37,151 nt of DNA from Candidatus Zhuqueibacterota bacterium (GTDB lineage: Bacteria; Zhuqueibacterota; Zhuqueibacteria; Thermofontimicrobiales; Thiofontviventaceae): the NCBI GenBank assembly GCA_014729735.1, contig WJJN01000117.1, positions 1 through 37,151 of the forward strand. The letters run 5' to 3'. Of this stretch, positions 5,616 to 36,229 are shown in pieces. Under the pieces are notes generated by a model. The model worked only from the letters and a program-made list of their open reading frames with translations, was not told where the DNA came from and ran no database searches. Position 1 is the first letter of the stretch. Each line of letters starts with the position of its first letter. Position numbers and translations under genes: made by a program.

Positions 5616-5845
5616 AGCATTGATATTTGCGCAGGCAAGGAGGTGGTAATGAGTAGGAGCAGTGACATGGCATTGAATACAATGTACAGAAAACTTAAGA
5701 AAGTGAATTCGAAAGGAGGTGTTAAAAAAAACAGGTTTCAATTAATCTATAAGTAATTTGCTATGGAGTAATATGGAGTTACGAATAAGTTAAAGATGTT
5801 GATAATGATTAATTCACAATAACTCAGAATTTGAGGAGGAATGTT

Positions 5846-14909: not shown

Positions 14910-17210
14910 ATGAGACCGATATTTCAAAATTTTATGTTGTTTCTTGCAGTAAGCGTATTGTTGAACTGTTCACAAAAAACAGATCTCGTACCGCTAAATT
15001 GGATTCATTTATCCAGCCAACATGCCGCGCTTCAAAAGCCGTCGACATCGACGCAGCAAACCGCCTCGCTTATTCTTGATATTGATAAAGACGGATTGAA
15101 TGATTTTGTAATTTGCGGCAGAAAAGCACAGCCATCCGTGTGCTGGTATCAACGCATCGCCACCGGATGGAAAAAATATGTCATCGATGCTGAGATTCTT
15201 CCCATCGAAGCAGGTGGCACATTTACGGATGTCGACGGAGACGGGGATCAGGATATTATCATGGGAGGAGACACGTCTACTAATGAATTGTGGTGGTGGG
15301 AAAATCCGTACCCGGAATTCGATCCCGCGGTGACATGGATACGGCGGCAGATAAAGAACTCAGGTGACAGGCAATCGCACGATCAGTTATGTGGTGATTT
15401 TGACGGTGATGGCAGGGATGAGTTAGTGTTCTGGAATCAGCGGGGAAAGAAATTGTATTTCTCTGAAATCCCTGAAAACCCCGGAACTGATGCGCCCTGG
15501 GATATCGAAGTCATGTGGTCATGGAATGTTGATTTCAAGTATGAGGGACTGGCAAAGGGCGATATTGATGGTGACGGTATCGATGACGTCGTTGGTGGCG
15601 GACGCTGGTTTAAAAGAAGCGATGAAAATTGGGAAGTGCATGTCGTTGATGCGGATTATGGCAGCTCCCGCTCTGCGGTTGCGGATTTGGTTCGGGGCGA
15701 CAGACCGGAAATCGTTTTAGCCTCCGGTGATATGGTGGGACCATTAAATGTGTACCAGTGGGACGGAAGTAAATGGTTGAAAACGACGCTCGTTGATTCG
15801 GTAGATCACGGGCACAGTCTGGATGTTGTGGACATGAATGGTGACGGATATTGTGATATTTTTTGTGCTGAAATGCGGTTGAGCGGGCGAAATCCTGACT
15901 CGCGCATGTACATTTTTCTGGGCGATGGAAACGGAAATTTCGTTCAGACCGAAGTCGCACAGGGATATGGCAACCACGAATCCCGTGTGGCTGATCTGGA
16001 TGGGGACGGTGATGTCGATATTTTGGGAAAACCATACAATTGGAATTCTCCGCGGGTGGATATCTGGCTGAATGAACCGCTTGCCAAAGATCTGGAATTA
16101 ACACAATGGGAACGTCTTGTGATCGACACAAAGAAACCGTACAAAAGTGTTTTTATTTACCCCGGTGATCTGGATAATGACGGATTGATTGATATTGCTT
16201 CCGGCAGTTGGTGGTATAAAAATCCCGGAACCACCAGTGGCACCTGGGAGAGAAAAATGATTGGCGAACCTTTGTACAATCTGGGCTTAATTTACGATTT
16301 TGATGGTGATGGCGATTTGGATGTATTCGGAACTCAGGAACGGGAAAAAGATAATACCGCACTGTTTGCCTGGGCGCAAAATAATGGCGATGGCACTTTT
16401 AAGCTTTATGAAAATATTGAACCGGGTAAAGGAGATTTTCTGCAAGGAACAGATGTGGTGACACTGATCCGTAAGCAGGATGAATTGAAAAATTCGCCTC
16501 CCTGGTATAGTGATTTAAAAATCGTACTTTCCTGGCATAAGGGCGGGATGGGCGTGCAGGCTGTTACTGTACCGGCAGAACCGACATTGGAAACATGGGC
16601 ATGGGGAGTTATCAGCGAGGTGTCGCAGGATGAGCAGCTCACCGTGGCGGATATCGACGGCGATCGGTTGCAGGATATTCATCTGGGAACCAGGTGGCTG
16701 AAATGTGAAGATCGCAACGGCGATCAATGGTCGCTGCACACCATCAATGAAATTGAACAATTGCCGGATCGAAATCGGATTGCGGATATGGACAAGGACG
16801 GTCGGCTGGATGTGGTGATCGGCTTTGAGACCGCGGATATTCACGGGAAATTAGCGTGGTATGAGCAAGGTGAAGTTCCCACTGATTTATGGACAGAACA
16901 TGTTATCGATAGTCTGCCGGGACGCGCGATGAGCCTTGATGTGGCTGATATGGACCTCGACGGAGATATGGATATTGTGGTAGGTGAACATTTTTCTGAT
17001 CTGAAAAAACCTGAGGAAGCAGACCTGTTTGTTTACGAAAATCTGAATGGCGACGCGCTGTCCTGGCAGAAACATCTCATTTACACCGGAGACGAGCACC
17101 ACGATGGTACCCAGATATGCGACATCGACGCTGATGGCGATTTGGATATCATTTCCATCGGCTGGAAACACCCGCGGGTGGTTTTGTATGAAAATAAGTC
17201 CATTGATTAG
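14910..17210 (+). CDS. FG-GAP/VCBS repeat (beta-propeller) lipoprotein
   Basis: Lipobox-like LLNCS. More than 10 Ca-binding-type repeats are present (DVDGDGDQDII, DFDGDGRDELV, DIDGDGIDDVV, DMNGDGYCDIF, DLDGDGDVDIL, DFDGDGDLDVF, DMDLDGDMDIV, DIDADGDLDII). GAGGAG sits 6 nt before the ATG. Confidence 0.85.
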   Translation: MRPIFQNFMLFLAVSVLLNCSQKTDLVPLNWIHLSSQHAALQKPSTSTQQTASLILDIDKDGLNDFVICGRKAQPSVCWYQRIATGWKKYVIDAEILPIEAGGTFTDVDGDGDQDIIMGGDTSTNELWWWENPYPEFDPAVTWIRRQIKNSGDRQSHDQLCGDFDGDGRDELVFWNQRGKKLYFSEIPENPGTDAPWDIEVMWSWNVDFKYEGLAKGDIDGDGIDDVVGGGRWFKRSDENWEVHVVDADYGSSRSAVADLVRGDRPEIVLASGDMVGPLNVYQWDGSKWLKTTLVDSVDHGHSLDVVDMNGDGYCDIFCAEMRLSGRNPDSRMYIFLGDGNGNFVQTEVAQGYGNHESRVADLDGDGDVDILGKPYNWNSPRVDIWLNEPLAKDLELTQWERLVIDTKKPYKSVFIYPGDLDNDGLIDIASGSWWYKNPGTTSGTWERKMIGEPLYNLGLIYDFDGDGDLDVFGTQEREKDNTALFAWAQNNGDGTFKLYENIEPGKGDFLQGTDVVTLIRKQDELKNSPPWYSDLKIVLSWHKGGMGVQAVTVPAEPTLETWAWGVISEVSQDEQLTVADIDGDRLQDIHLGTRWLKCEDRNGDQWSLHTINEIEQLPDRNRIADMDKDGRLDVVIGFETADIHGKLAWYEQGEVPTDLWTEHVIDSLPGRAMSLDVADMDLDGDMDIVVGEHFSDLKKPEEADLFVYENLNGDALSWQKHLIYTGDEHHDGTQICDIDADGDLDIISIGWKHPRVVLYENKSID

Positions 17211-17361: not shown

Positions 17362-18795
17362 ATGTCACTAAAACAAACCAGAAGAGAATTCATTCGAAAT
17401 ATCAGTCACATTTCTGTTGGGACTTTGGCTGCTGGTACGACGATAAGTCTACTATCTTCATGTGGTAATAAAGCTAAAAAACGCAAACCAAATATCATTT
17501 ACATCCTTGCGGATGACCTGGGATATGGTGATCTGGGTTGCTACGGACAAGAACGGATTCAAACCCCGAATATCGACCGGCTCGCAGCAGAGGGGATTCG
17601 GTTTACACAACATTATGCCGGCAGCACAGTGTGTGCGCCCTCTCGCTGTTCTCTAATGACCGGACTGCATACGGGTCATGCCGCAATTCGTGGGAATTCA
17701 AGGGTTGATCCAATGGGACAGAAGCCACTTCCGGCAGAAGAAACTACTGTGGCAGATGTGCTTAAAAAAGCCGGTTACGCAACTGCTCTCATTGGCAAAT
17801 GGGGACTTGGCGGACCGGATACGGAAGGGGAACCGGGGAAACATGGTTTTGATTACTTTTTCGGCTACCTGTGCCAGCGCCATGCACATAACTATTACCC
17901 GGAATTCCTGTTCCGAAATACGGAACGCGTTCCTCTATCCAATGTTGTTGATAATGATCGTACAGACGGCGCCGGCGAAGCAACAGTCAAAAAAGAATAT
18001 GCTCACGATCTGATTATGGACGACGCATTATCATACATCGAAAAAAATCAGAAAAATCCGTTCTTCCTCTATTTATCGCCCACTATACCACATGCGAATA
18101 ATGAAGCCGGTGATCATGGTATGGAAGTCCCCACTGATGCGCCGTATTCAGAAAAGGACTGGCGCCAGCAGGAGAAAAATTTCGCCGCAATGGTCACCCG
18201 ACTGGATGAAGGCGTCGGCAAAATCATGAAAAAATTAAAACAACTGGGACTGGATCATGATACTATCGTTCTCTTTACAAGTGATAACGGACCGCATCGC
18301 GAGGGCGGGCATGACCCGGACTTCTTTGACAGCAACGGAAAATTAAGAGGAATAAAACGGGATTTATACGAAGGCGGCATTCGCGTGCCACTAATTGCTC
18401 GCTGGAAAGGAGTTATCGAGCCAGATCAGGTGAGCGATCACGTGTCAGCGTTCTGGGATTTTCTACCAACGGCTGCCGAAATTGCAGGAACAAGTTTTCC
18501 CAATAATATCGATGGAATTTCATTTTTACCGACATTACTCAATAAGTCCCAAAAAAAGCACGACCATTTTTACTGGGAATTTCATGAAGGAGAAAGTTCT
18601 CACCAGGCTGTGCGCAGCGCTAAGTGGAAGGGCGTGCGTTTCAGTCCAAAAGGAAAATTGGAATTATATGATTTATCTGCGGATGTTGAAGAGAAAAATA
18701 ATGTTGCGGATCAACATCCGGAGATCGTTCAGAAATTGGAGAAGACATTGGCAGAAGCCCACACCGAAAGTGAACTGTGGAAACTGAAACAATGA
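17362..18795 (+). CDS. S1-family (formylglycine-dependent, Cys-type) sulfatase with Tat leader and lipobox
   Basis: Motifs: PNIIYILADDLGYGDLGCYG, the FGly motif CAPSRCSLMTG (Cys codon 17632-17634), GKWGLGG and SDNGPH. The leader is KQTRREFIRN...LLSSCG. Confidence 0.93.
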   Translation: MSLKQTRREFIRNISHISVGTLAAGTTISLLSSCGNKAKKRKPNIIYILADDLGYGDLGCYGQERIQTPNIDRLAAEGIRFTQHYAGSTVCAPSRCSLMTGLHTGHAAIRGNSRVDPMGQKPLPAEETTVADVLKKAGYATALIGKWGLGGPDTEGEPGKHGFDYFFGYLCQRHAHNYYPEFLFRNTERVPLSNVVDNDRTDGAGEATVKKEYAHDLIMDDALSYIEKNQKNPFFLYLSPTIPHANNEAGDHGMEVPTDAPYSEKDWRQQEKNFAAMVTRLDEGVGKIMKKLKQLGLDHDTIVLFTSDNGPHREGGHDPDFFDSNGKLRGIKRDLYEGGIRVPLIARWKGVIEPDQVSDHVSAFWDFLPTAAEIAGTSFPNNIDGISFLPTLLNKSQKKHDHFYWEFHEGESSHQAVRSAKWKGVRFSPKGKLELYDLSADVEEKNNVADQHPEIVQKLEKTLAEAHTESELWKLKQ

Positions 18796-21174: not shown

Positions 21175-23217
21175 ATGAAAAAAACAGATATATTGTATAT
21201 TTTAATCATCACCGGATTTATCATTTCAGCATTTAAAAATAGTTCGGCAGAGGATTATGAGAGAATAAAGGCGAAATGGCTAAAACAGGGAATTGTGGAT
21301 GCCGGAGGAAGTCACGAACCGTACATGTTTCGGATTCGCCGTGGTGGCTTCAATCTGCGCACTGACGAATGGGAACACTATCTGGCAGAGCACTCGGAAG
21401 AGAATGTCAAACGGCTGTCCGATTTAGGTGTGAATGTCTATCATACCCATTTTTACAAGGGATTCGGTATGGCGGCTGAAATGGAAGAAATGGAGCGCAC
21501 AAAGGAACTGGCGGAGATTGTACACAAATACGGCATGAAGATCGACACGTATCTCCAGTGGGGTTCCATTATGTATGAAACGTTCTTTGATGAAATTCCA
21601 GCCGCAAGAAACTGGATCGAGGTGGACCAGTTCGGAGACCCCATTTTGCGCTATTCGAACCGGCAGTTTTTCCGATATGCGCCCTGCATCAATAATGAAA
21701 ATTATAAAGCGTATTTGAAAAAAGTCATTCGCTATGCTGTGGAAGAGGTGAAGACCGATTTTATTCATTTTGATAATTTTGGCGGACTTAAAGAGCCAAA
21801 ATCCTGTCATTGTCCGGTATGTACGCAAAAGTTTCGCGAATACCTTAAAGAGAAGTATGATGAGGAAGGTCTCAAACAACGATTCGGTTTTTCGAATCTG
21901 AATAATATACTGCCACCCCAAGCCGATCGATGGGCTCACAACTGGGATTATTCCGCCATCGTGGATCCGGTGATTCAGGAATGGATTGAATTTCGATGCA
22001 TCAGTTTGAGTAATGCGCTCCGGGAAATGGCACAATATATCAAAAGCCTGAATCCGGAAACTGTAGTCGAAGTCAATTTTAATCCGGGACTTTCAGGATG
22101 GAATCTTGCCCTGCGCGGGAAATCGCCGAAATACATTCTCCCCAACACCGAGGTTGTTTGGACTGAAGAACGGAATACTGCCGAAATGACCGAAGATGGT
22201 AGATTGGTCTCTGAAATTCGTTCCTATAAAATGGCGCGCATGTTTGACAATATCGCATTTACCTGGGTCGGTAAAAGTGAGCTTTCACTGGCATGCGGGC
22301 TGGCGTTTAATCAAACAATGGGATATATCGGAGAGCTATCTTTCCCGCCGATGGTGTTGCGCTATCTCGATTTCTACAAGCAAAACAGGCACCATTTCAC
22401 AGTAACAACCGATGTTGCCGATGTTGCGATCTTGCGATCTTTTGCAACGATGACGTACAATTTTTTCGCCGGCGTAGTGTCGACAACTCTCTTTGAACAA
22501 ACACTGCTGCAAGCCAAAATTCCGTTTGATATTATTTTTGATCAGCATTTAAATGACCTGTCACAATATAAAGTGCTCGTACTGGCGAATCAAACCTGTC
22601 TGTCTGATGAGCAACTCGGTGTCGTTCGACAATTTGTGGAAAATGGTGGTGGATTAGTTTTTACGGAAAATACATCACTTTACAACGAACGGGTGTGGAC
22701 TCGACCGCAGTTGGGATTGGCAGATTTATTTGACTCTGAAACAGCGCCAACGCCTGATTCAGAGGAAAAGGAAATCAGGGAATCGGTCAGTAAGGGACGA
22801 GCAGTGTATATTCCGATCGTACAACCCGCGAAACCGCTGCCCCGGGACCGGGATTCATTCACCAGTAAGCACTGGTATTTACCGGTAAATTGGCGACAAT
22901 TAGCCGATGCAGTTCGATGGGCGGGAAATGAAGATTTTTCAGTTGTGGTGGAAGGTCCGACTTCGCTGCTCATGAATTTAGTCGAGCAAAAAAAAACCGG
23001 CAATCTGATACTGCATCTGCTGAATTTCAATGCAAATAAACCGGAAAAAGATATCCCGGTTCAAATTACAAAAAATCAGAACAAGCGGATAAGCCGAATC
23101 AGTTATAAATCCCCGGATGAAAAAGAAGAGCAGAAAATAATGTTTACGGACGAGGAAGAAAAATTGACTTTTACAGTACCAGGTGTGAGTGTGTATGGTA
23201 TTGTTGTGATTGAATAA
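21175..23217 (+). CDS. GH42-like protein (TIM barrel with Zn-Cys cluster + trimerisation-type domain), secreted; acid/base position not conserved
   Basis: Signal peptide MKKTDILYILIITGFIISAF. APCINNENYKAY...FDNFGGLKEPKSCHCPVCTQKFREYLKEKY parallels the Thermus A4 beta-galactosidase segment YCFSSPVYRE...[30 protein letters not shown] (recalled from memory). YKVLVLANQTCLSDEQLGVVRQFVENGGGLVF matches the GH42 domain B pattern. Confidence 0.6.
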   Translation: MKKTDILYILIITGFIISAFKNSSAEDYERIKAKWLKQGIVDAGGSHEPYMFRIRRGGFNLRTDEWEHYLAEHSEENVKRLSDLGVNVYHTHFYKGFGMAAEMEEMERTKELAEIVHKYGMKIDTYLQWGSIMYETFFDEIPAARNWIEVDQFGDPILRYSNRQFFRYAPCINNENYKAYLKKVIRYAVEEVKTDFIHFDNFGGLKEPKSCHCPVCTQKFREYLKEKYDEEGLKQRFGFSNLNNILPPQADRWAHNWDYSAIVDPVIQEWIEFRCISLSNALREMAQYIKSLNPETVVEVNFNPGLSGWNLALRGKSPKYILPNTEVVWTEERNTAEMTEDGRLVSEIRSYKMARMFDNIAFTWVGKSELSLACGLAFNQTMGYIGELSFPPMVLRYLDFYKQNRHHFTVTTDVADVAILRSFATMTYNFFAGVVSTTLFEQTLLQAKIPFDIIFDQHLNDLSQYKVLVLANQTCLSDEQLGVVRQFVENGGGLVFTENTSLYNERVWTRPQLGLADLFDSETAPTPDSEEKEIRESVSKGRAVYIPIVQPAKPLPRDRDSFTSKHWYLPVNWRQLADAVRWAGNEDFSVVVEGPTSLLMNLVEQKKTGNLILHLLNFNANKPEKDIPVQITKNQNKRISRISYKSPDEKEEQKIMFTDEEEKLTFTVPGVSVYGIVVIE

Positions 23218-25990: not shown

Positions 25991-26779
25991 ATGAACAATG
26001 TTACTCCAAATCATGCATTTAAAGTCGATCAATTACAGGTAAAAATATACGATTCGAGCATATCGATGGGACAGGCAGCGTCGGATTTTGTTGCCGGTGA
26101 ATTGAATCGCGCAACCCAGAAACGAGGATATGCCAACTTGATTTTCGCCACCGGTGCCTCCCAATTCAAATTTATCGATGCTTTTAAAAAGGATAAAACT
26201 GTAGACTGGGCCCGGATCACCGTATTTCACCTGGATGAATACAAAGGCATGTCAGATCAGCATCCTGCCAGCTTCAGGCGTTATTTAAAAGAGAGAATTC
26301 TGGATGAGGTAAAACCACAGCAAATTTATTTTCTGAATGGCGATGTTGATGATATCGATGCAGAAGTAACCAATTATGAACGATTACTGAAACAACATCC
26401 TGTTGATGTGGCGTGCATCGGCATAGGAGAAAACGGGCATATTGCATTTAACGATCCCCCGGTTGCTGATTTTAATGATCCGAAACTTGTTAAAGTCCTC
26501 GAATTGGATGAAGCCTGTCGCAAACAGCAACTGGGGGAAGGCTGGTTTGATACGATTCACGATGTTCCGACACACGCATTGAGTTTGACGATCCCGGCGA
26601 TTATGCAGTGTCAGGCTGTAAGTACTGCGGTGCCGGACTTACGAAAAGCAGATGCAGTGTATAACACTCTGAATAGTGAAATCAGTACAAGCTGCCCCGC
26701 TACTATATTGCGAACGCATCCGAAGGCAGTATTATTTCTCGATCCTGATTCTGCATCAAAATTGGAAAAAGCAGAATAG
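25991..26779 (+). CDS. nagB: glucosamine-6-phosphate deaminase
   Basis: 262 aa with no signal peptide. FATGASQ, TVFHLDEYKGM, IGIGENGHIAFNDPP and THPKAVLFLD match the E. coli NagB pattern (GLPTGGTP, TFNMDEYVGL, GVGNDGHIAFNEP, LHPKAIMVCD). Confidence 0.88.
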   Translation: MNNVTPNHAFKVDQLQVKIYDSSISMGQAASDFVAGELNRATQKRGYANLIFATGASQFKFIDAFKKDKTVDWARITVFHLDEYKGMSDQHPASFRRYLKERILDEVKPQQIYFLNGDVDDIDAEVTNYERLLKQHPVDVACIGIGENGHIAFNDPPVADFNDPKLVKVLELDEACRKQQLGEGWFDTIHDVPTHALSLTIPAIMQCQAVSTAVPDLRKADAVYNTLNSEISTSCPATILRTHPKAVLFLDPDSASKLEKAE

Positions 26780-26798
26780 TATTATGAAAGGAGTGAAA

Positions 26799-28367
26799 AT
26801 GTTCGATCGAATTCCCAAATACATTCTTGTTTATGTTTTATTGTTATTACCCTTTAAATTGAATGCAATTTATGTGGAATGGCCAGGAGAAGATGAGGAT
26901 GCCACAGCGCTTCTTCAGCAGGCAATTGATTCCGGTGAACCTGAAGTAAGATTGGCAAATCATGGTTCACCATGGATAATTGGTCAAATTGAATTGACTC
27001 GAGATGACCAGCGAATTGTTTTCGAGAGTGGTGTTCGGGTTGAGGGTAAATATGGCGCTTTTCCGGAAACAAACGATAAAATGTTTCGCTGCTATAATCA
27101 TAAAAATATCGAGTTAATCGGCGAGGGAGAAACGCCGGTATTGAAAATGCCTAAAAAGTCATTTTGGGAGGGGCAGCATCGTCATCTGACTGCCTGGCGA
27201 AATGTCGAAAATCTGACAATCAGCAATTTGCATTTGCGAGACAGCGGCGGAGATGGAATTTATCTGGGCAGTTCCTCAAATTTACCATGCAAAAATGTTT
27301 TGATTGAAGATGTGATCTGTAATAATAACCGCAGACAGGGATGCAGCATTATTAGTGTTGACAGTTGTATTATTCGGAATTGCGTTTTCAAGAATACGTA
27401 TGGTGAGTCACCCGAAGCGGGAATCGATTGTGAAATGAATTCAAAAGATGAAAGTATAAATGCGTTGTATATTGAAAACTGCGTTTTCGAAAATAACCAT
27501 CAAAGCGGTTTTCTGATATCATTTGGAAGAGCTTCAAACCGAAATCCAAATCGACACATTCGGATTGAATTAAATAATTGCATCATGAAAGGAAATGGAA
27601 GCGCCGGGATTAATATCTGGAAATGCAAGGGAAATTGCTACAATGAATCAGATTATGTGTTATTCAAAAATTGCCATATTGAAGACAATGGCAGTGCTCC
27701 CGGCTACGGACATCCCGGTTTATTTGTAAAAAATAAAAGCTCACAATCACTGCCTGTGACTTTGGATAGCTGTACTTTTGTCGATAATTTCTCGAATCCG
27801 ATTAAGGTATATGCGGATGTTGATGGTTACGGACCCGACTGTGGAAATCTTCGTTTTGAAGATTGTCACATTTACGATGATAGAGATCGTGAATTTTTAA
27901 GAGTGCGGAATACCACCAACGATGAAGGTAAAATCAGCAAGATTTTCGGCACGATAACAATACATAATGAAAACCCGAAAGCGTGCGACATCCGCTATGA
28001 TTCACCGGCTGACAGTTTTGATTTAACGATTCATTGCAATCCTACAGGTATCGATAGCAAGGAAATAGTCAGAACCCAAAACCATCCTGCGCGGTTTTAT
28101 TTATACCAAAATTATCCGAATCCATTCAATCCATCAACAAAAATAACTTTTGATGTTTACGAAAACGTACAGGTTAAAATTACGATTCATAATGTTCTCG
28201 GTCAAATCGTCAAAACTCTGATTGACGGAGCTTTACATGTTGATCACTATGAGCTTTATTGGGATGCCACAAATGAATCTGGCGGTAAAGTGAAGAATGG
28301 GCTCTATCTTTGTCAACTGCAGACAGAGGATAAGATTTCTTCAATTAAATTGATTGTCTTGAGATAA
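26799..28367 (+). CDS. right-handed parallel beta-helix (PbH1 repeat) protein with T9SS C-terminal sorting domain
   Basis: The track start 26676 overlaps nagB. The ATG at 26799 follows GGAG by 5 nt and gives signal peptide MFDRIPKYILVYVLLLLPFKLNA. PbH1 repeats are LRDSGGDGIYLGSS, NNNRRQGCSIISVDSCIIRNCVF, ENNHQSGFLIS and KGNGSAGINIW. It ends in a CTD. Confidence 0.78.
   Translation: MFDRIPKYILVYVLLLLPFKLNAIYVEWPGEDEDATALLQQAIDSGEPEVRLANHGSPWIIGQIELTRDDQRIVFESGVRVEGKYGAFPETNDKMFRCYNHKNIELIGEGETPVLKMPKKSFWEGQHRHLTAWRNVENLTISNLHLRDSGGDGIYLGSSSNLPCKNVLIEDVICNNNRRQGCSIISVDSCIIRNCVFKNTYGESPEAGIDCEMNSKDESINALYIENCVFENNHQSGFLISFGRASNRNPNRHIRIELNNCIMKGNGSAGINIWKCKGNCYNESDYVLFKNCHIEDNGSAPGYGHPGLFVKNKSSQSLPVTLDSCTFVDNFSNPIKVYADVDGYGPDCGNLRFEDCHIYDDRDREFLRVRNTTNDEGKISKIFGTITIHNENPKACDIRYDSPADSFDLTIHCNPTGIDSKEIVRTQNHPARFYLYQNYPNPFNPSTKITFDVYENVQVKITIHNVLGQIVKTLIDGALHVDHYELYWDATNESGGKVKNGLYLCQLQTEDKISSIKLIVLR
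28092..28364 (+). other. T9SS type-A C-terminal sorting domain, copy 3
   Basis: RFYLYQNYPNPFNPSTKITFDVYENVQVKITIHNVLGQIVKTLIDG...VKNGLYLCQLQTEDKISSIKLIVLR. Confidence 0.85.
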
Positions 28368-28405: not shown

Positions 28406-30637
28406 ATGAGAACTTATAAATATTGCAACCCAATTTTCTGTTTGTTAATATTATTAATCCCCTATTCTATTATAGGTATTGAACCTGGCACCGGTCCCCA
28501 ATCCGGTGATATCTACCGGGAGTATTCGATCTTTCCTTCGGATGAGGGTAGCGGCTATTGGCGCGTGACCAATCCAAATGCGATCTCCTCCGGAGCGAAA
28601 CGATTTCTGCCAAATCCTGTAATGCGGTTTGAGATCAGCGACCTGACGCAGGCAATCAAAGCAGAAGCAGTCATCGATTACTGGGGCGGACACACCGGCA
28701 CTATTGATCGCAAATTTTCTATCAATGATAATAAATGGATTGAACTGCCCTATCCTGCCACGATCCAACAGCGTCCTTATAACTATGCATTTCAAATGAA
28801 CGCAATTGTAGATGTGCCGCTGGAACACTTGCTGAAAGGTCGAAATACGATTACCGGCACCTGTTCGCATGTGGATAGTACCAGTTGGGGGCAATGGGGC
28901 TGGTATCGCATTACATTTCGTGTTTATTATGACGAAAGCAAGCCTCATCCATCGGGACAAATTCTCGCGCCTGTATCGGGAGAAACCATCGGAGATATTC
29001 CAAACATCATTGCGGAAGGGAATAGCAATGCTGGTGTCAGTCATATTAATATCATTGGATTTTACGATGGGTATGATGTGGATGGCAACGGCATTTATGC
29101 AGATTGGCATCGAAATTATAACGGGAGAAGACTGGAAGACCATATTGGCTATGATGGACAGGAGCCATTTGCAATCACATGGGATACGAAATGGATACCG
29201 GATCAGGATAACATTCAAATCCGGGCACATATTGCAGATAATAACGGATATGTTTACGTAACAGAGCCTGTCACCAACCTCTCGTTGCAGCGCAATGACA
29301 GAATTGTGAAAATGTATCACGCGACTGGTGTTCATGAGGATTTTGCAGTCAGGATGGGCGAAAAGGCAGCCTGTCAGACTTCCATCCCGGACAGACTGTT
29401 TAATGCGTCCGAAGCGTCGTTGCATCTTCGCACCTGGAACGGGTATAATCATGGCGAAAGAAACTGGGGATATCTCAACGATTGGCGATTTACACCACCC
29501 GGCGAGAATCACTGCTATGATTACGGGATCAAGTCAATTCCGGTAAGTGTGTTGCAGGAGAAAAGTAATAAGATTCTGTTCACTTCTTCCACTCATGAAC
29601 ACGGAGTGGAAATTCTATGGCCAGGTCCGAGTATTGCTGTCAGCTATTCCCTTGAATTGGCTGCTTATTGGGAGGCTTCCGCGTATTCCGGTGCAGCACC
29701 GATGAAAATTTACTTCAACGGTCAGAAGTCTGTAGTGCCCCGGAATCAGGAAATTACAGACTATTCCTGGAATTTCAGAGACGGTACAATTGCAAACGGC
29801 GATACAGTCAGTCATGTTTTTGAAAATCCCGGCTTATATGCTGTCGAATTAACAATAACCGATAATAACGGTGAGACCGCCACGCATACCGAAGAAATTT
29901 ATATTCACGATGCACAATTCGCCATTGACTGCAAGTCGGTTGCAGCAAGCTATGACAAATCTCCGTATGATAAATGCAAATCCATTGACGGAAATTTTGA
30001 TACATTCTGGATGAGCGTGGGCGACGGTCAATGGATTCAGTATGATTTGCGAGCACTCAAAACGCTGCAAGCCTGTTATCTGGCATTTTCTTCAGGCGAC
30101 AAAACGACGTACCGGTTTAGCATCGAGACATCGGTTGATAGCGTTTCCTGGAATGCGACCAGTAATTCTCCCTTTACCAGCAGCGGATATTCAACAGAAT
30201 ATGAGCTCTTCAACTTTGACGATGTCACAGCACAATGGATTCGGATTGTATTTCACGGCTCATCCTTTACTGCGAATTCCGTATCTGAATTTGCTGCCTA
30301 TGGGAGTGATTCCGTATCAACTGATGTGGAGATTGGTACTATGGATCAAGCTATGCCCGAAGAATTCATCCTACATCAGAATTATCCAAATCCGTTCAAT
30401 CCGGCGACGAAAATCTGCTACAGCATTCCGAAACAGGCGAATATTAAGCTCACCGTGCATAATATTCTGGGACAGCACATCAAAACGCTCGCAGATGATA
30501 ATTTTCCTGCTGGCAAATATACAGTTGAATGGAATGGCACAGATACGTATGGACAGACGGTGGGAAACGGTATATACTTTTACAAAATACAAACAGATGA
30601 ATTTTCCGAGGTACGAAAAATGGTGGTTCTGAGATAG
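28406..30637 (+). CDS. multidomain secreted protein: unknown ~380-aa module + PKD + F5/8 type C (discoidin) + T9SS CTD
   Basis: Signal peptide, then an unknown module (aa ~35-415, nt 28508-29650) paralogous to the 32861 product. The PKD domain is at nt 29663-29905 (YSWNFRDGTIANGDTVSHVFENPGLYAVELTITDNNGE). The discoidin domain is at nt 29918-30301 (IDGNFDTFWMSVGDGQWIQYDL...WIRIVFHG). The CTD follows. Confidence 0.82.
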   Translation: MRTYKYCNPIFCLLILLIPYSIIGIEPGTGPQSGDIYREYSIFPSDEGSGYWRVTNPNAISSGAKRFLPNPVMRFEISDLTQAIKAEAVIDYWGGHTGTIDRKFSINDNKWIELPYPATIQQRPYNYAFQMNAIVDVPLEHLLKGRNTITGTCSHVDSTSWGQWGWYRITFRVYYDESKPHPSGQILAPVSGETIGDIPNIIAEGNSNAGVSHINIIGFYDGYDVDGNGIYADWHRNYNGRRLEDHIGYDGQEPFAITWDTKWIPDQDNIQIRAHIADNNGYVYVTEPVTNLSLQRNDRIVKMYHATGVHEDFAVRMGEKAACQTSIPDRLFNASEASLHLRTWNGYNHGERNWGYLNDWRFTPPGENHCYDYGIKSIPVSVLQEKSNKILFTSSTHEHGVEILWPGPSIAVSYSLELAAYWEASAYSGAAPMKIYFNGQKSVVPRNQEITDYSWNFRDGTIANGDTVSHVFENPGLYAVELTITDNNGETATHTEEIYIHDAQFAIDCKSVAASYDKSPYDKCKSIDGNFDTFWMSVGDGQWIQYDLRALKTLQACYLAFSSGDKTTYRFSIETSVDSVSWNATSNSPFTSSGYSTEYELFNFDDVTAQWIRIVFHGSSFTANSVSEFAAYGSDSVSTDVEIGTMDQAMPEEFILHQNYPNPFNPATKICYSIPKQANIKLTVHNILGQHIKTLADDNFPAGKYTVEWNGTDTYGQTVGNGIYFYKIQTDEFSEVRKMVVLR
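30362..30634 (+). other. T9SS type-A C-terminal sorting domain, copy 4
   Basis: EFILHQNYPNPFNPATKICYSIPKQANIKLTVHNILGQHIKTLADD...VGNGIYFYKIQTDEFSEVRKMVVLR. Confidence 0.85.
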
Positions 30638-30676
30638 ACGCCTGAGACTGCAGGTTAAGTATTCGAATTTAAATGT

Positions 30677-30700
30677 GTGCAATTCATAAAGGAATTGCAC
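30677..30700. other. perfect 9-bp inverted repeat / hairpin (GTGCAATTC-N6-GAATTGCAC) without a U-tract
   Basis: Read directly. It starts 40 nt after the stop at 30637 and ends 57 nt before the next start. It is preceded by TTCGAATTTAAAT (30662-30674). Confidence 0.35.
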
Positions 30701-30757
30701 TCCAGGGCTCCTTAATTGAGGAAACATAAATGTGAGAAATCAGCTAAGGGAATTCTC

Positions 30758-32812
30758 ATGAAATATAACAAAATATCTCTTTATTTGATAATTGTATTAC
30801 ATCTGACAATAGCCAGTGCATTTGCTGCGGACTCATTAAAAGTCCTGCCTGAATCGATGAACGGCATCGCACCAGAAGATATGATGAAACGATATTTATG
30901 GAATGAAGCCAAGCGTCATTTCACGAACTGGGAAGGCGAATATGAACGACTTACAAATCCCGAACAGATGCAACGGCATCAGCAGTGGTTACGCGCGCAA
31001 TTTATTGAAAAAATCGGTGGATTGCCTGAACGAACACCGCTGAATGCACAGGTTGTTGGCGTGATTGAGCGCACTGGATATACTGTCGAAAAAATAATTT
31101 TTGAGAGCCAGGCGAATCACTATGTGACTGCACTGTTTTTTCTGCCGGATAGTGAAAAATGGGCGCGACCCTGTCCGGGAGTGATTGTCCCGTGCGGACA
31201 TTCATCAAATGGAAAGGCTTCTAAAACCTACCAGAGTGTTGCGGCCTTGTTGGCACTTCAGGGGATCGCGGCGCTGGTGTATGATCCCATCGATCAGGGT
31301 GAGCGGGGACAACTGCTAAATGAGGACGGGCATATTCGATTTCCGAAGGTGATTGGTCATACGATGGTGGGGATCAATTCCATTCTGCTGGGCAGAAATA
31401 CGGCTCGGTTTCGCATCCGGGATGGGATGCGCGCCATTGATTATTTGCAGTCGCGTCCGGAAGTGAATCGGGACAAGATCGGTTGTACCGGAAATAGCGG
31501 CGGTGGTACCATGACAGCCTATTTCATGGCGCTGGATGACCGTATCAAAGCGGCTGTGCCCAACTGTTATATCACGAATTTTGAACGCTTGTTGCAGACA
31601 ATCGGTCCCCAGGACGCGGAACAAAATATTTTCGGGCAAATCGCATGGGGCATGGATCATGCCGACTATCTGATGATGCGGGCGCCGGTTCCCATTCTGG
31701 TGAGCGCTGCAACCCGTGATTTTTTTGATATTAGTGGGAGCTGGACATCATTTCGTCATGCGAAACGCTATTATGACCGGTTGGACTTTACCGAACGAAT
31801 TTCAATCAATGAGCATGACGGAAGGCATGGATTCCACAAATCCATGCGCGAGGCTGCTGTGCAATGGCTTGTCCGATGGCTGGCGGGCAGGGATGAGAAA
31901 GTTTCCGAGCCGGAAATTGAATTGCTGACTGATGCCGAGTGTCAATGTACCCCCCGTGGACAGGTGATGTTACTTAATAGCGCCAGATCCGTGTACGATT
32001 TGAACCGGGATTACGAACAGAAATTAGCAGTTCATCGAAAGAACATCTGGAAAAACAGTAGTCATGGCGTGTTGATGAAAAAGGTACGTGAAATCGCTGG
32101 TATTCGGGCAGCAGTGTGTCTACCCTGTCCCGACGAAGAATTTCTGGAAATGATAGACAAGGAAGATTATGAAATCAAAAAGCTGATCATCAAGCCGGAA
32201 ATCGGGATTTATTTGCCGGCACTGCTGTTTTCTCCGTATAATAAATCACAGGAAATTGTTTTATATGTCCATGAAAAGGGAAAATCGGCGGATGCCGGTT
32301 CTGGCGGAGCGATTGAGCAACTTGTAAAAAAAGGTAAGATCGTGCTTGCAGTCGATGTACGAGGCAGCGGCGAAACACAACAGGAGCAGCAATTCGGTTT
32401 TGAAAAAGTCATTGGCGGACAGGGTGCACAGGACGTTTTTACCGCTTACTTACTTGGCAAATCTTATGTGGGAATGCGGGCGGAAGATATTTTAAGTTGC
32501 ACCCTCTGGCTGAAAAAGAATTTTGTCGATAGAACTATCTCATTAATTGCCATCGGAAATGTGGGAATTCCGGCATTACACGTAGCCGCAATTGAGCCAG
32601 AGCTGTTTGATTCGATCCATATTTCAAAATGCCTGATTTCCTGGCAGAACGTGATTGAATTCGGCTGGTCGTACAATCAATTGATAAATAACGTACATGG
32701 TGCACTCACTTATTACGATCTGGATAATCTCATTCGATCACTCGGGAATAAAATAACGGTCGAGCAGCCGGTGGATGCTCAAGGGCAGTTAATAAAAATT
32801 ATTGAAGAATGA
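30758..32812 (+). CDS. secreted tandem alpha/beta-hydrolase-fold protein (esterase/peptidase-like; first domain GNSGG nucleophile elbow)
   Basis: The track start 30716 is TTG. The ATG at 30758 gives signal peptide MKYNKISLYLIIVLHLTIASAFA. Domain 1 reads VIVPCGHSSNG...IGCTGNSGGG (Ser codon 31496-31498). Domain 2 repeats the fold with IAIGNVGIP (Val codon 32561-32563). Confidence 0.75.
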   Translation: MKYNKISLYLIIVLHLTIASAFAADSLKVLPESMNGIAPEDMMKRYLWNEAKRHFTNWEGEYERLTNPEQMQRHQQWLRAQFIEKIGGLPERTPLNAQVVGVIERTGYTVEKIIFESQANHYVTALFFLPDSEKWARPCPGVIVPCGHSSNGKASKTYQSVAALLALQGIAALVYDPIDQGERGQLLNEDGHIRFPKVIGHTMVGINSILLGRNTARFRIRDGMRAIDYLQSRPEVNRDKIGCTGNSGGGTMTAYFMALDDRIKAAVPNCYITNFERLLQTIGPQDAEQNIFGQIAWGMDHADYLMMRAPVPILVSAATRDFFDISGSWTSFRHAKRYYDRLDFTERISINEHDGRHGFHKSMREAAVQWLVRWLAGRDEKVSEPEIELLTDAECQCTPRGQVMLLNSARSVYDLNRDYEQKLAVHRKNIWKNSSHGVLMKKVREIAGIRAAVCLPCPDEEFLEMIDKEDYEIKKLIIKPEIGIYLPALLFSPYNKSQEIVLYVHEKGKSADAGSGGAIEQLVKKGKIVLAVDVRGSGETQQEQQFGFEKVIGGQGAQDVFTAYLLGKSYVGMRAEDILSCTLWLKKNFVDRTISLIAIGNVGIPALHVAAIEPELFDSIHISKCLISWQNVIEFGWSYNQLINNVHGALTYYDLDNLIRSLGNKITVEQPVDAQGQLIKIIEE

Positions 32813-32818
32813 ATCGTA

Positions 32819-32845
32819 AATTTAAATCGAAAATAGATAAACCAA
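32819..32845 (+). promoter_or_regulatory. conserved leader motif AATTTAAATCGAAAAT-N4-AAACCAA upstream of the 32861 gene
   Basis: 16/16 identity with 17319-17334 plus the shared AAACCAA. It ends 15 nt before the ATG at 32861. Confidence 0.4.
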
Positions 32846-32860
32846 ATCAAAAGAGCTGTC

Positions 32861-34123
32861 ATGAAAAGATTAGTCACAATAATAAGTTTTCTTTTACTGA
32901 TCATTAACACCGGGAATTGCCAAACCAGATTTTTCAAAGAATACCCGGCGGATTTCTCCAAAGAAATAAATAATATCACCAACGGACGTCTGCGGGTAAA
33001 TGATACCAATGCGAGCCTGAATCTCGATTACGGAAATCGTGGCGAAGTGCGGTCAAATGGACTGATGTTGATTTCCGTGCCTGAAAATTTGTTTTCTCTG
33101 GAAAAGGCGGAGTTGTACCTTGAATTATGGGGCGGACATCCGGGGACTAAAAACAAGCATTTTTCGCTGAATGGGAAACAGATTTATTCGCTACAGGAAG
33201 TCGGCGCGGCTGCCGGACATTGCGTTTATTCAAATCCTGTTATTCCTGTTAAAATACAACATCTTGTGAACGCCGCAAATGCGTTATTATTCTCATGTGA
33301 AAATCCAAAAGGCTGGGGGCATTATATTATCGAACATGCAACAATCCGATGCTACCTCGCGCCGGATCATCCGGTGCTGACAAAGAACGGTCTCCATCAT
33401 TTTTCAGCAGAAATTAAACTGGCGTCATCGAATTGCATTTTGGGTGATGAGGTTGGCATGCAACTGACATATCCCAAATCTCATGAATCCAGTATTGATT
33501 CAGTGGTCTATTTCGGACGATATCTGGATTTTGATGAAAATGGTGACGGCATTGAAAATGACTGGCATGGATTTTCGATAAATGGCACATTCGAAAACCA
33601 TCTTGGAACCGTAAGCGAACCTCCGTTTCAAATCGTCTGGAATACGAGCATGATTCCGGATCAGGGAAAACCACTGGCAATTAAAGCACTCGTTTGCTTG
33701 AAAAATGGCGTGCGCTATTGGACGCCGGTTCGGGATGGTTTGTATTTGTCAAAGAACAGAAAGCCGGTCACGTTAATACCTTGTACTTCGATGCCGGTTC
33801 CATTCTGGGCTCGAGCTTCCAGAGAGATGAAAGCGACAATGATTTTGCCGGATAATATCGACAAAATCGAACAAGCAATGCTGTTGATTAAAACATGGTA
33901 CACCCAAATTGAGCACAGTGTGTATCATTTTTCAATCAATAATCATGAGTACACAATTATCTCTGAGGGATGTGACAAGAAACCGTTATTATCAAAAATC
34001 GATGTAAATCCGGCTCATCTGAAATCAGGGGACAATGAAATAAGCCTTTTTTGTGACACCAGGCATCATGGGATCGAAGTGCTGCTGCCGGGTCCGTGTT
34101 TGTTGATTCGGTATCATGAATAG
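32861..34123 (+). CDS. exported protein of unknown function, stand-alone copy of the module found at the N-terminus of the 28406 product
   Basis: Signal peptide MKRLVTIISFLLLIINTGNC (possible lipoprotein Cys20). Shared blocks are ELWGGHPGTKNKHFSLNGK, ENDWHGF, PPFQIVWNTSMIPDQ and HHGIEVLLPGPCLLIRY. Confidence 0.72.
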   Translation: MKRLVTIISFLLLIINTGNCQTRFFKEYPADFSKEINNITNGRLRVNDTNASLNLDYGNRGEVRSNGLMLISVPENLFSLEKAELYLELWGGHPGTKNKHFSLNGKQIYSLQEVGAAAGHCVYSNPVIPVKIQHLVNAANALLFSCENPKGWGHYIIEHATIRCYLAPDHPVLTKNGLHHFSAEIKLASSNCILGDEVGMQLTYPKSHESSIDSVVYFGRYLDFDENGDGIENDWHGFSINGTFENHLGTVSEPPFQIVWNTSMIPDQGKPLAIKALVCLKNGVRYWTPVRDGLYLSKNRKPVTLIPCTSMPVPFWARASREMKATMILPDNIDKIEQAMLLIKTWYTQIEHSVYHFSINNHEYTIISEGCDKKPLLSKIDVNPAHLKSGDNEISLFCDTRHHGIEVLLPGPCLLIRYHE

Positions 34124-34165: not shown

Positions 34166-36229
34166 ATGAACCAACCTGAAATTACCTGGTCACTCATGCA
34201 CCCGACGCCATTGGATGTGGATTATTTCAATAAGGTGATCAAGGCATCTACGAAATATCATGTCGATAGCTTTGAAATTTGTGGCGAGTGTCATACGACT
34301 TATGGCGGTATAGATGGTTTAATTTTTTTCAAGGATTATCCTGCTGTCCGGCAACATGTCGATTCTACGATTATCAAAAGTAATCAGGAAAAATTGAATT
34401 CGATCATCCGAGCGGCGCATAACATTGGAAGACCGGTTTACCTCTGGCACCGGGAAATCATGCTGCCGGAGGCAATGCCCGAATTCGCACCGGAGCTTTT
34501 TGATGAAAACCTAGAGCTCGATCTATTTGGAAATGCCTTTCGCATTTTTCTTAAAAACAAACTAACTGAATTTTTTGAGTCAATCCCTAACCTTGACGGA
34601 CTGGTGCTTACCTTAACCGAAGCTGATTTCTCGGTAATTCACCACTCGGATTCAGATCGCTATCCGCCGGTGAAGGTGGTTGAATATATCGTGCGTATTT
34701 TTGCCGAATTTTTAAATATTCATAACAAACAGTTCATCTTGCGCTCTTTTGGTTCAATTGACAGGGATTACGAGGATATTTTAGCCGGTGCAGAATTAGC
34801 GGCAAAAGATTTTCACTTTGAAATTGAGACCAAAATTACGGCATTTGATTTCAATCCATTTTTCCCTGTGAATCCGTATTTAAAACATGTTCCCGGAACA
34901 ACATTGTCCGCAGAATGCGATAGTCTGGGCGAATTTATGGGAGCCGGGCAATTGCCTGCAGCCAATGTAGATAACATTGTCACCTATGTCAAAGCCGGAT
35001 ATGAACGCAAGATTGAACGGTTTGCCATCCGAGTGGATCGGGTCGGGAATTCCATAATTAATTCAGCGTATGAAATCAATCTTTTCGCTTATGATCAGGC
35101 GATAAAAAACCCGAAAGTGAACCCGGAGGAAATTTACAGCATCTGGGCGGAACAGCATTGTCCGGATTGCGAGCGGGAGTTGATTAATATATTGAAATTC
35201 GGATTTGAATATGTCACCAAAATGCTGTATATCGACGGACAATTGATTTTTCACACCAACCCGGTGTCACCGATGATCAAATGGTTAAAAGCCGGCGGTA
35301 TTCCGGCGGTTTTTCAGGAAAATGTATCGCTGGAAAATCACCGTCATATTTGGTCCATTTTTGATGAGAAACAATCACCCACTCACGAAAAAATTTTGCG
35401 GGAAAAAGACCAGGCAATCGAACTGGCGCTCGCTGTTCTGAAGAAACTGGATTTCACGAAAAACAAGATGAATCCTGATTTCTATAAAAAGCTCCGTCAA
35501 TTATGGGAAAATGCATTAAAAGTAGGTGTTGCTATTCGTGCGTTATGTGAGTGCTTATGTGCTTACGTCACAGACATGAGACAGCGAAAACCGAATTTCC
35601 CGGAATTAACTCATGCGATTAAGAATGCGCAGATGTCAATTCAACCGATTATTGATCGAAAGCAGAAAATAAAAGCACATGAGAATTCCGAATCTGTTTC
35701 CGATGCCATTGAACATGATATTTTCAAAGTTACATCAATTGAGGTGAACACTGTCTATCTGATACAGATTTTACACTTAATCGAAACGTTAGGAGACGAA
35801 TACATCGCCGAATTCAAAGAAAGTGCGCATTGGACAAAGCGGAAGGATATTGTCGACTACATTGTGTGTGGTGGTATCGCTGATGATTATCGGGTGAGTC
35901 GCTATATGCACGCCAGTCATGGATTTTTGAAAAATAGTCGAGTCTATCGGCAGGTGGGTAATCGCATGTTTCCCAATGGCTATATTGAATGTGCACTAAA
36001 AACGCGTTCAACCGGGAAATATAAACTAATCGTCAGTGGTGATCCGAATGCAAGTGAGGGATTTTCGATACTTATCAATGATCATTCAATCAATGCTGAA
36101 TATTCTGCAGATGGTTTCTGGGAACAAGCTATGGATCTGCCATCTGATGCCCAGCGAGTGACAGTGCGAATATCGAAACGAGGAAAAACTTTTCCACAAA
36201 TCTATTCGATCGCGATCGTTAAAATTTAA
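34166..36229 (+). CDS. hypothetical protein, no signal peptide (possible TIM-barrel-like N-terminal half + C-terminal beta-sandwich)
   Basis: A 687-aa uninterrupted ORF with coding-like composition; AAGGAA sits 9 nt before the ATG. I recognise no family motif. The C-terminal ~110 aa (GKYKLIVSGDPNASEGFSILINDHSINAEY...VTVRISKRG) look like a CBM-type beta-sandwich. Confidence 0.65.
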   Translation: MNQPEITWSLMHPTPLDVDYFNKVIKASTKYHVDSFEICGECHTTYGGIDGLIFFKDYPAVRQHVDSTIIKSNQEKLNSIIRAAHNIGRPVYLWHREIMLPEAMPEFAPELFDENLELDLFGNAFRIFLKNKLTEFFESIPNLDGLVLTLTEADFSVIHHSDSDRYPPVKVVEYIVRIFAEFLNIHNKQFILRSFGSIDRDYEDILAGAELAAKDFHFEIETKITAFDFNPFFPVNPYLKHVPGTTLSAECDSLGEFMGAGQLPAANVDNIVTYVKAGYERKIERFAIRVDRVGNSIINSAYEINLFAYDQAIKNPKVNPEEIYSIWAEQHCPDCERELINILKFGFEYVTKMLYIDGQLIFHTNPVSPMIKWLKAGGIPAVFQENVSLENHRHIWSIFDEKQSPTHEKILREKDQAIELALAVLKKLDFTKNKMNPDFYKKLRQLWENALKVGVAIRALCECLCAYVTDMRQRKPNFPELTHAIKNAQMSIQPIIDRKQKIKAHENSESVSDAIEHDIFKVTSIEVNTVYLIQILHLIETLGDEYIAEFKESAHWTKRKDIVDYIVCGGIADDYRVSRYMHASHGFLKNSRVYRQVGNRMFPNGYIECALKTRSTGKYKLIVSGDPNASEGFSILINDHSINAEYSADGFWEQAMDLPSDAQRVTVRISKRGKTFPQIYSIAIVKI

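Follow-up and report, generated by a model that had tools for sequence, protein, structure and literature searches.

The window analysed here is the whole contig, 37,151 nt long, of a metagenome-assembled genome (MAG) of a candidate division KSB1 bacterium. It is a one-strand locus resembling a polysaccharide utilization locus (PUL). Two of its open reading frames (ORFs), hereafter A and B, are both present at the coordinates listed in Table 1, and each carries one copy of the same module. When A was compared with B by BLASTP, a single collinear alignment of 26% identity (E=1e-32) was obtained, between A 14-414 and B 4-418. The match of a hidden Markov model (HMM) of the family extends over A 6-415 and B 4-419; no third copy turned up when all six frames of the window were searched with it. 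The initial annotation, which was made from the sequence alone, had described residues ~35-415 of A and essentially the whole of B as paralogues; the pairwise similarity is significant and all four blocks quoted there are found in the translations. An antisense ORF overlapping A (28454-29512) is regarded as spurious because the frame of A is backed by hundreds of homologues.

In A, the signal peptide and the module are followed by PKD and F5/8 type C (discoidin) domains and by a type IX secretion system (T9SS) type A C-terminal sorting domain, which scores 38.7 bits against a TIGR04183 cut-off of 23. This fusion had been predicted and A is indeed a T9SS cargo protein. B is made of a signal peptide and the module and nothing else. 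Its proposed lipoprotein nature is poorly supported by its N-terminus: T-G-N-C before the cysteine is an atypical lipobox, and close relatives of B have clear signal-peptidase-I sites (e.g. VNA↓G). In a crude pattern test, 33 of 246 family members had lipobox-like N-termini, most being of the signal-peptidase-I type, and the signal peptides of the Bacteroidota copies end with LSAQ↓E, LHAQ↓E or AAAQ↓P without a lipobox cysteine. These signals, those of the Bacteroidota PUL copies included, imply that the proteins would be soluble and periplasmic.

No family of Pfam-A 2025 or NCBIfam 20.0 was matched above its curated cut-off, whether A, B or the isolated module was searched. B gave no Pfam or NCBIfam match even at E<=0.1, and the A module gave a single Pfam match, to Big_7 (E=0.13). 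The best Pfam score of any member, 22.9 bits for a cut-off of 27, was obtained with PF14683 ("CBM-like, PL4 domain III", CBM standing for carbohydrate-binding module) on the C-terminal jelly roll of one member. PDB sequence and profile searches with the module returned no match, nor was there any sequence match to a characterised catalytic domain of a polysaccharide lyase or glycoside hydrolase (CAZy catalytic families). All sources that name members call them "hypothetical", "Ig-like domain-containing" or "T9SS sorting domain-containing". The earlier statement that the module fits no known family thus stands: a confident match to Pfam or to a characterised family was looked for, no sequence match was obtained and the fold matches described below are at domain level only.

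An AlphaFold model of B was computed from an alignment (A1) of B, the A module and 34 homologues (pLDDT 89.9, pTM 0.87). Past the N-terminal signal helix it is nearly all beta-strand, with helices of at least four residues at aa 2-15, 171-175 and 206-211, and it consists of the three parts given for B in Table 1, each a sandwich. The pTM indicates that the predicted domains are packed in a fixed manner. The two outer parts are related to each other, B 64-170 and B 318-420 being aligned by hhalign profile-profile comparison over 74 columns with a probability of 98% (E=2e-13); neither end of B matched the middle third significantly (profile-profile, E 0.25-0.43). Many members give weak Big_7 (bacterial Ig) matches in the middle domain. 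The profile comparison, the model and the Big_7 matches agree with the earlier proposal that the first and last thirds resemble each other and are two related beta-sandwiches around an Ig-like insert. In the middle domain, we infer that the loop D223-x-D225-x-N-G228-D-G is a Ca2+ loop of the DxDxDG motif type.

Foldseek, with 50 matches listed per search, gave only domain-level matches for the whole module among the matches listed (query TM-score, TMq, <=0.24), namely to BcsB, GH86 C-terminal domains, reelin, Cry toxins, GH146, transglutaminase and complement MG domains. The C-terminal jelly roll modelled alone (pLDDT 94.6) matched best the carbohydrate-binding domain of BcsB (TMq 0.70, root-mean-square deviation 3.5 Å, E=2e-4), followed by GH86 C-terminal domains (0.65), PL4 domain III (0.56) and CBM36, CBM35 and CBM6 (0.42-0.55). 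When catalytic proteins appeared among the listed matches (GH86, GH156, PL4, GH78), their accessory domains alone were matched. The structural check suggested in the initial annotation was run on the model of B and yielded, among the matches listed, CBM-like jelly-roll matches only. Because of these matches of the C-terminal jelly roll and of the sub-threshold PF14683 match, the repeated unit is read as a distant CBM-like jelly roll; the whole three-domain module has no described counterpart.

BcsB (PDB 6yg8, 9fmt, 7l2z) is the best structural match, with ~140 columns aligned to the C-terminal jelly roll and E=3e-8 for the whole module. Its chain also has two such jelly rolls parted by another domain, is exported and handles a glycan chain. 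However, identity is just 11-14% with no sequence-level match, and TMq for the whole module is 0.23. In BcsB, a subunit of a synthase, jelly rolls and flavodoxin-like domains follow one another in alternation, whereas the middle domain of the module is Ig-like and the module is soluble or T9SS-anchored and found mostly in catabolic loci. Membership in the BcsB family was rejected, given the lack of a sequence match and of a flavodoxin-like alpha/beta domain, the end of B right after the second jelly roll, and the absence of GT2/BcsA among the window ORFs scanned against Pfam.

CBM6, CBM35, CBM36 and PL4 domain III share fold class and size with the jelly rolls (TMq 0.42-0.56; 7ay3, 2w46, 2w1w, 2vzr, 2y8k, 1nkg). 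The C-terminal domain has the build of a CBM6/35/36 jelly roll of ~120-140 aa (TMq 0.55 for CBM36, 0.42-0.52 for CBM35 and 0.46 for CBM6). Several CBMs of these types bind their ligand through a metal site at the loop end. In contrast to them, the module has its three domains fixed in one unit, with a single putative junction site (see below) and His/His/Glu invariants that are not their signature; the structural E-values are 1e-3 to 1e-2, and no CBM_6 or CBM35 Pfam match and no CBM HMM at threshold were found.

A profile search of 1.84 billion cluster representatives, defined at 50% identity, returned 889 at E<=1e-3 and 443 at E<=1e-30. The resemblance of A and B could in principle reflect chance or low complexity with no real family behind it, but these numbers, the pairwise E-value and the confident fold prediction already refute this explanation, whose probability is close to nil. 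The group revealed by this search is large, and the neighbourhoods of its members are mostly catabolic. Matches in genomes include Planctomycetota (Sedimentisphaerales, Phycisphaerae, Pirellulales, Brocadiaceae, Thermoguttaceae), KSB1, Calditrichia, Latescibacterota, Melioribacteraceae, Rhodothermales, Verrucomicrobiota, Acidobacteriota and, among Bacteroidota, Cytophagia MAGs, Telluribacter and the cultured Parapedobacter soli KCTC 12984. A-type relatives extend the range to Glassbacteria, Gemmatimonadota and Armatimonadota. Carriers belong to ten phyla or more and come from marine habitats, sediments, soils and digesters.

Among 320 collected family proteins, 220 are stand-alone (<=520 aa); in longer proteins the module is N-terminal in 67, C-terminal in 21 and internal in 11. 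An N-terminal module is usually followed by Ig, fn3, LamG, CBM4_9, F5/8C and T9SS C-terminal domains, and secreted enzymes are usually built in this way, with trailing accessory domains. The three domains stay together throughout the family and are inherited only as one unit. Together, these results show that the module is an autonomous, exported, rigid and indivisible three-domain unit, found in glycan-catabolic loci.

Residue conservation was evaluated on 238 sequences from many phyla and both subfamilies, non-redundant at 70% identity (numbering of B). H93 is conserved in 100%, H403, E406 and N104 in 99%, N140 and N392 in 98%, Q268 and R318 in 97%, T96 and N360 in 95%, D225 in 93%, R45 in 92%, T400 in 89% and R163 in 88% of them. 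Trp 90, 152, 260 and 346 are conserved in 97-99% and Trp 235 in 88%. Some positions have a counterpart in the other jelly roll (A83/A339, W90/W346, G92/G348, N104/N360, L135/L387, G138/G390 and N140/N392) and are probably structural. R45, H93, T96, D225, Q268, R318, T400, H403 and E406 are each unique to one domain, and both window copies retain every one of them; the invariants of A are R53, H96, T99, N107, N147, D224, Q267, R316, N358, N388, T396, H399, E402 and P406-P408. In one divergent member, H93, H403, R318 and T400 are lost together.

Mean-field direct coupling analysis of 357 sequences (Neff 269) gave top intradomain pairs that match the AlphaFold strand ladders (e.g. 85-101, 84-163, 342-377 and 358-395). 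The strongest interdomain pairs were 224-413, 94-316, 238-344, 157-347 and 90/91/92-225; these, with pair 316-404, link invariant-bearing loops of all three domains. Of the ten top interdomain pairs, four run from one such loop to another, the background rate being 3.8% (p=4e-4, for a loop set chosen post hoc). The near-invariance of polar residues in loops that coevolve across domain boundaries points to a single composite site at the junction, and one conserved site made by the three domains is the most economical reading. Such a site would account for the inheritance of the three domains as one unit.

Two site-lining positions differ between the window copies, H154 of B being Q163 in A and H402 of B being E398 in A. 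The H154/Q and H402/E differences are consistent with the "two specificities" that had been put forward, next to a binder plus an enzyme, for the A/B pair. That the two form a meaningful pair gains some support from these differences and from gene order: A-type and B-type genes, which lie close together in the window, adjoin in loci L042 and L065, as does a fragment in L026.

Gene neighbourhoods were compared in 74 non-redundant module loci of 20 kb, with 2000 within-locus permutations. The ~400-aa FG-GAP propeller is the sole family specifically tied to the module in these loci: in 14 of them, from at least six phyla, an FG-GAP gene is found no more than two genes away from the module, and 22 of 27 FG-GAP ORFs lie at most two genes from the module, for 8.8 expected, a count that no permutation reached. 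The gene orders are FG-FG-MOD, MOD-FG-FG, FG-MOD and MOD-FG, where MOD is the module, and in Bacteroidota the set lies immediately 3' of SusC-SusD. Natural fusions confirm the link, either as FG-FG-MOD (P0208, P0242, P0262, P0207, P0231) or as MOD-FG (P0136, P0217), and P0260 is a MOD-X294-FG-FG protein in a single chain. The window has its own version of this partner, the FG-FG fusion of ORF 14910, which the initial annotation had overlooked as part of a recurrent set. The FG-GAP association is nevertheless facultative. About 80% of module loci have no FG-GAP gene nearby. In a reciprocal metagenome scan that set out from the FG-GAP protein, none of seven close orthologues had a module within 8 kb, and 60 distant FG-GAP loci contained one module-FG fusion and one FG-X294 pair. 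An obligate FG-GAP complex was rejected on the 14 of 74 loci and on the seven orthologues. A literature search on FG-GAP proteins in PULs gave nothing relevant. FG-FG-module and module-FG fusions resemble the propeller and thigh/calf beta-sandwich legs of integrin alpha, and integrin alphaV was a weak whole-module Foldseek match (4o02_A, E=7e-5, TMq 0.17); this match is, however, generic, the domain order is variable and no homology beyond the FG-GAP repeats was shown.

Eight module loci contain X294, an undescribed domain of ~260-330 aa without Pfam, NCBIfam or PDB match, and 21 of the 320 family proteins carry it fused to the module; it is also fused to FG-GAP in L065:60-2294. X294 is a candidate catalytic domain with many invariant D/R/H/E/W/Y residues, including a YWxLYEG motif. 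The partnership of the module with paired FG-GAP propellers and X294, neighbouring or fused, is thus recurrent but facultative. As a separate observation, FG-GAP is fused to AP_endonuc_2 (a xylose-isomerase-like TIM barrel) in genes adjoining module genes (L026:13104-15227, L041:7785-9824, also L073:1-1704).

Other genes recur around the module: GH116, GH123, GH127, GH140-like and GH172 enzymes, sulfatases, GFO_IDH_MocA oxidoreductases, AP_endonuc_2 proteins, PfkB kinases, ILVD/EDD dehydratases, SDRs and GntP and MFS transporters, all of them related to sugar catabolism; SDR, PfkB, ILVD/EDD and GntP are genes of sugar-acid catabolism. Sulfatase, GFO_IDH_MocA and X294 genes were no closer to the module than random placement within the 20-kb loci. 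The glycan-related role suggested in the initial annotation is in line with this context, the related loci being glycan-catabolic with frequent sulfatases. Two PUL-like loci have no recognised carbohydrate-active enzyme (CAZyme): L075 is ordered SusC-SusD-DUF3823, X294, module, FG, FG, EEP, and L042 is ordered sigma factor, FecR, TonB transducer, T9SS cargo, PorV-like, A-type, B-type. The Sedimentisphaerales operon runs GH116-unknown-GH123-GH140-like-module-unknown (L012; orthologues L010, L013, L027), the module being flanked by conserved genes without Pfam match, L012:5211-6677 (~488 aa) and L012:11336-12721 (~461 aa, twin-arginine-like signal). The neighbours offer leads only as to the substrate: apiose-/furanoside-rich pectins, sulfoquinovose and the 3-keto-glycoside pathway. 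As context for the last of these, GFO oxidoreductases and "sugar phosphate isomerase"-type proteins constitute a periplasmic route of 3-keto-glycoside cleavage (bioRxiv 10.1101/2024.03.25.586180).

The module gene lies directly 3' of SusC-SusD in L063, L065 and L069 and nearly so in L075, and is placed otherwise in the window and in most loci. This is the position of the SusE/SusF-type surface glycan-binding proteins of Bacteroidota PULs, which also consist of several beta-sandwiches. Unlike them, the Bacteroidota module proteins have signal-peptidase-I signals without a lipobox cysteine, and the window has no SusD. A SusE-like lipoprotein reading was rejected on these signals; no SusE/F-type family was among the Pfam hits, and no direct comparison with SusE/F was made.

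Glassbacteria have gene clusters for glycosyltransferases, flippases and acetyltransferases that include between two and five T9SS-tagged paralogues of the A type in tandem, and GH172 and AP_endonuc_2 genes are found close by (L085:8063-17809, L086:10001-13967). Such clusters, together with the nearest fold being that of a cellulose synthase subunit, BcsB, and with giant members of 2000-3900 aa whose Ig, cadherin-like and fn3 repeats look adhesin-like, could indicate a structural or assembly role in the envelope instead of a catabolic one, the module being an adhesin, a surface-layer component or a BcsB-like guide for an exported polysaccharide. We consider this very unlikely: most neighbourhoods are catabolic, with SusC/D, TonB receptors, sulfatases, the GH families listed above, sugar kinases and transporters, and the module is devoid of the flavodoxin-like domains of BcsB in a window where no bcsA was found among the scanned ORFs. 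Moreover, polysaccharide-synthesis clusters commonly also encode a dedicated glycan-cleaving enzyme (AlgL, BcsZ, PslG).

The reading that we favour, while placing it somewhat short of an even chance, is that the putative junction site is a metal-assisted catalytic centre cleaving an acidic or sulfated glycan. A metal would be held at the junction by the His/His/Glu set and the DxDxDG-type loop, and the module would be a new family of glycan-cleaving enzymes whose residue set is closer to that of a polysaccharide lyase than to that of a two-carboxylate glycosidase. A, anchored by the T9SS and targeted by its PKD and discoidin domains, would act at the cell surface on the polymer, probably an acidic or sulfated glycan, and B would act in the periplasm on imported fragments. 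The rest of the degradation would fall to the sulfatase and glycoside hydrolases of this locus and to its FG-GAP double propeller. Catalysis is favoured because conservation is enzyme-grade, because most members are stand-alone periplasmic proteins, because T9SS cargo proteins usually have the module at their N-terminus with CBM, Ig or LamG domains behind it, an arrangement shared by A, because some operons hold no other enzyme candidate and because the loci repeatedly contain sulfatases and genes of sugar-acid catabolism. The residues at hand (His, His, Glu, Arg, Gln, Asn and Tyr, with a Ca-type loop) would be more apt for elimination chemistry than for a two-carboxylate glycosidase. All-beta proteins assembled from binding-module-like domains have proved to be enzymes before, their site lying between domains or using a metal bound by His: PNGase F and peptidylglycine alpha-hydroxylating monooxygenase (PHM) have two jelly rolls with an interdomain active site, and CBM33 and GH61 were reclassified as lytic polysaccharide monooxygenases (LPMOs). 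These are analogies only; they have no motif in common with the module, and none of them was among the 50 matches listed per Foldseek search.

Several observations weigh against catalysis. All listed structural neighbours (the BcsB carbohydrate-binding domain, GH86 C-terminal domains, PL4 domain III, CBM36, CBM35 and CBM6) are non-catalytic, each jelly roll is CBM-sized (~105-145 aa) and no family member has been characterised to date. E406 is the sole strictly invariant carboxylate, and a classical Koshland glycosidase is therefore unlikely. The clustering of the invariant residues rests on coevolution, with the post hoc loop set mentioned above. Some members are fused to real catalytic domains in the style of a targeting module (beta-lactamase family, GSDH with cytochrome c, Abhydrolase_3), and the Glassbacteria tandem arrays look adhesin-like.

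The main rival to catalysis is a non-catalytic, metal-assisted recognition unit, a new CBM-like or lectin-like family that would bind one defined sugar epitope at the junction and would hold the glycan for, or present it to, FG-GAP, X294, AP_endonuc_2, sulfatases and glycoside hydrolases. The top fold matches are binding or accessory jelly rolls, the sub-threshold Pfam match is to a "CBM-like" domain, the duplicated-domain build is typical of tandem CBMs, and the variety of the fused catalytic domains, the gene position straight 3' of SusC-SusD in three loci and the fusion to or proximity of FG-GAP, X294 and AP_endonuc_2-bearing proteins all fit a presenting role. However, nine polar residues are kept across phyla, a much stricter conservation than would be expected of CBM families, and the domains never separate, their coevolution defining one junction and not two independent sites. 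Furthermore, most members are stand-alone soluble exported proteins, often without partner (none of the seven close FG-GAP orthologues is near a module), the Bacteroidota copies do not have the lipoprotein signal that marks surface glycan-binding proteins, and the module often itself carries CBMs. Pure recognition is nearly as probable as catalysis, and likewise short of an even chance.

The fold class of the module is known; the three-domain module with its putative junction site and its FG-GAP/X294 linkage is described in none of the resources searched. That it is a new enzyme family is less likely than not but a considerable possibility. The same weight goes to the broader proposal that it founds a metal-dependent glycan-cleaving family with a site built from three CBM/Ig-like sandwiches and forms, with X294 and paired FG-GAP propellers, an unrecognised multi-component degrading system across Planctomycetota, phyla of the FCB group, Acidobacteriota and Verrucomicrobiota; such a system would explain the PUL-like operons without CAZymes. 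Either way, a large unannotated family is brought to light, some of it in PUL-like loci without a recognised CAZyme. If catalytic, it would be a new CAZy-type family and the second "binding-module-like" fold to prove enzymatic, after the LPMOs; if it only binds, it would be a three-domain lectin of a new architecture, its site being unusually fixed. The linkage of module, FG-GAP and X294 gives a testable handle on three large protein groups of unknown function, and P. soli KCTC 12984, as a cultured carrier, makes experiments feasible.

Table 1. Features of the window and of related loci discussed in the text (window genes without coordinates are given in gene order).
Feature	Coordinates	Strand	Description
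ORF A	28406-30637	+	743 aa; signal peptide, A-type module, PKD, F5/8 type C, T9SS C-terminal domain; NCBI "T9SS type A sorting domain-containing protein"; P0149 100% identical
A-type module	28487-29650	+	~aa 28-415; BLASTP, family HMM
A, N-terminal jelly roll	28511-28942	+
A, Ig-like middle domain	28958-29305	+
A, C-terminal jelly roll	29306-29650	+
A, PKD domain	29693-29899	+	aa 430-498; PKD_4, E=4.7e-15
A, F5/8 type C (discoidin) domain	29942-30265	+	aa 513-620; E=2.2e-11
A, T9SS type A C-terminal sorting domain	30383-30628	+	aa 660-741; TIGR04183
ORF B	32861-34123	+	420 aa; MBD3287828.1, "hypothetical protein GF337_03415"; signal peptide, B-type module
B, N-terminal extension and jelly roll	32930-33370	+	aa 24-170; R45, W90-G-G-H93-x-G-T96, N104, N140, W152-G-H154, R163
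B, middle Ig-like (Big_7-type) domain	33386-33766	+	aa 176-302; D223-x-D225-x-N-G228-D-G-x-x-x-D-W235-H236 loop, W260, Q268
B, C-terminal jelly roll	33767-34120	+	aa 303-420; R318, W346, N360, N392, T400, H402-H403-G-x-E406, P410-G-P412
ECF sigma factor, FecR, TonB-dependent receptor		+	first genes of the window
T9SS cargo protein	5831-7540	+	569 aa; first ~480 residues match no family; follows the TonB receptor
DUF362 paralogue 1	7630-9165	+	adjoins paralogue 2
DUF362 paralogue 2	9214-10866	+	with T9SS C-terminal domain
DUF2961/GH172, then GH20		+	after the DUF362 pair
Double FG-GAP (VCBS) propeller protein	14910-17210	+	766 aa; MBD3287818.1; tandem propellers aa 10-389 and 398-764; lipoprotein-like N-terminus
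Sulfatase	17362-18795	+	SGSH_C domain; directly 3' of the FG-GAP gene
GH31		+	after the sulfatase
680-aa protein	21175-23217	+	weak GH42 and GH42M matches (E ~1e-6, below or near cut-offs); no NCBIfam match
Amidohydrolase, Nramp-type transporter, GlcN6P-isomerase-like protein		+	after the 680-aa protein
Beta-helix T9SS cargo protein	26676-28367	+	called GTG start overlaps the previous gene (25991-26779)
AXE1/S9-like alpha/beta hydrolase (esterase)	30716-32812	+	698 aa; between A and B
687-aa ORF	34166-36229	+	starts 43 nt past B; no Pfam, NCBIfam or PDB sequence match
Esterase homologue and module-FG-GAP fusion gene, L095	L095:632-3076 and L095:7642-9672 (-)
X294 members (alignment A3)	L075:9080-9964, L063:2369-3367, L034:6654-7601, L032:595-1386, L072:7081-7956

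The remaining genes of the window are given in Table 1; no SusD and no X294 were found in the window, and no Rfam RNA family either. The T9SS cargo protein at 5831-7540 occupies the position that the SusD gene has in Bacteroidota, and L042 has an analogue there, a 749-aa cargo protein followed by a PorV/PorQ-like gene. The two DUF362 paralogues are in an unusual location, DUF362 being usually read as related to iron-sulfur clusters. The 680-aa product of 21175-23217 may be a divergent glycosidase, and the true start of the beta-helix cargo protein is probably an internal Met near 26780. The 687-aa ORF was rejected as a conserved downstream partner of B, since it is not homologous to the post-module gene in L003 and has no homologue in 80 genome loci. 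Finally, L095, an unrelated metagenome contig, encodes a protein homologous to the esterase between A and B (34% identity, E=2e-95) at a distance of 3.4 kb from a fusion of module and FG-GAP, which hints that the place of the esterase in the window is not accidental.

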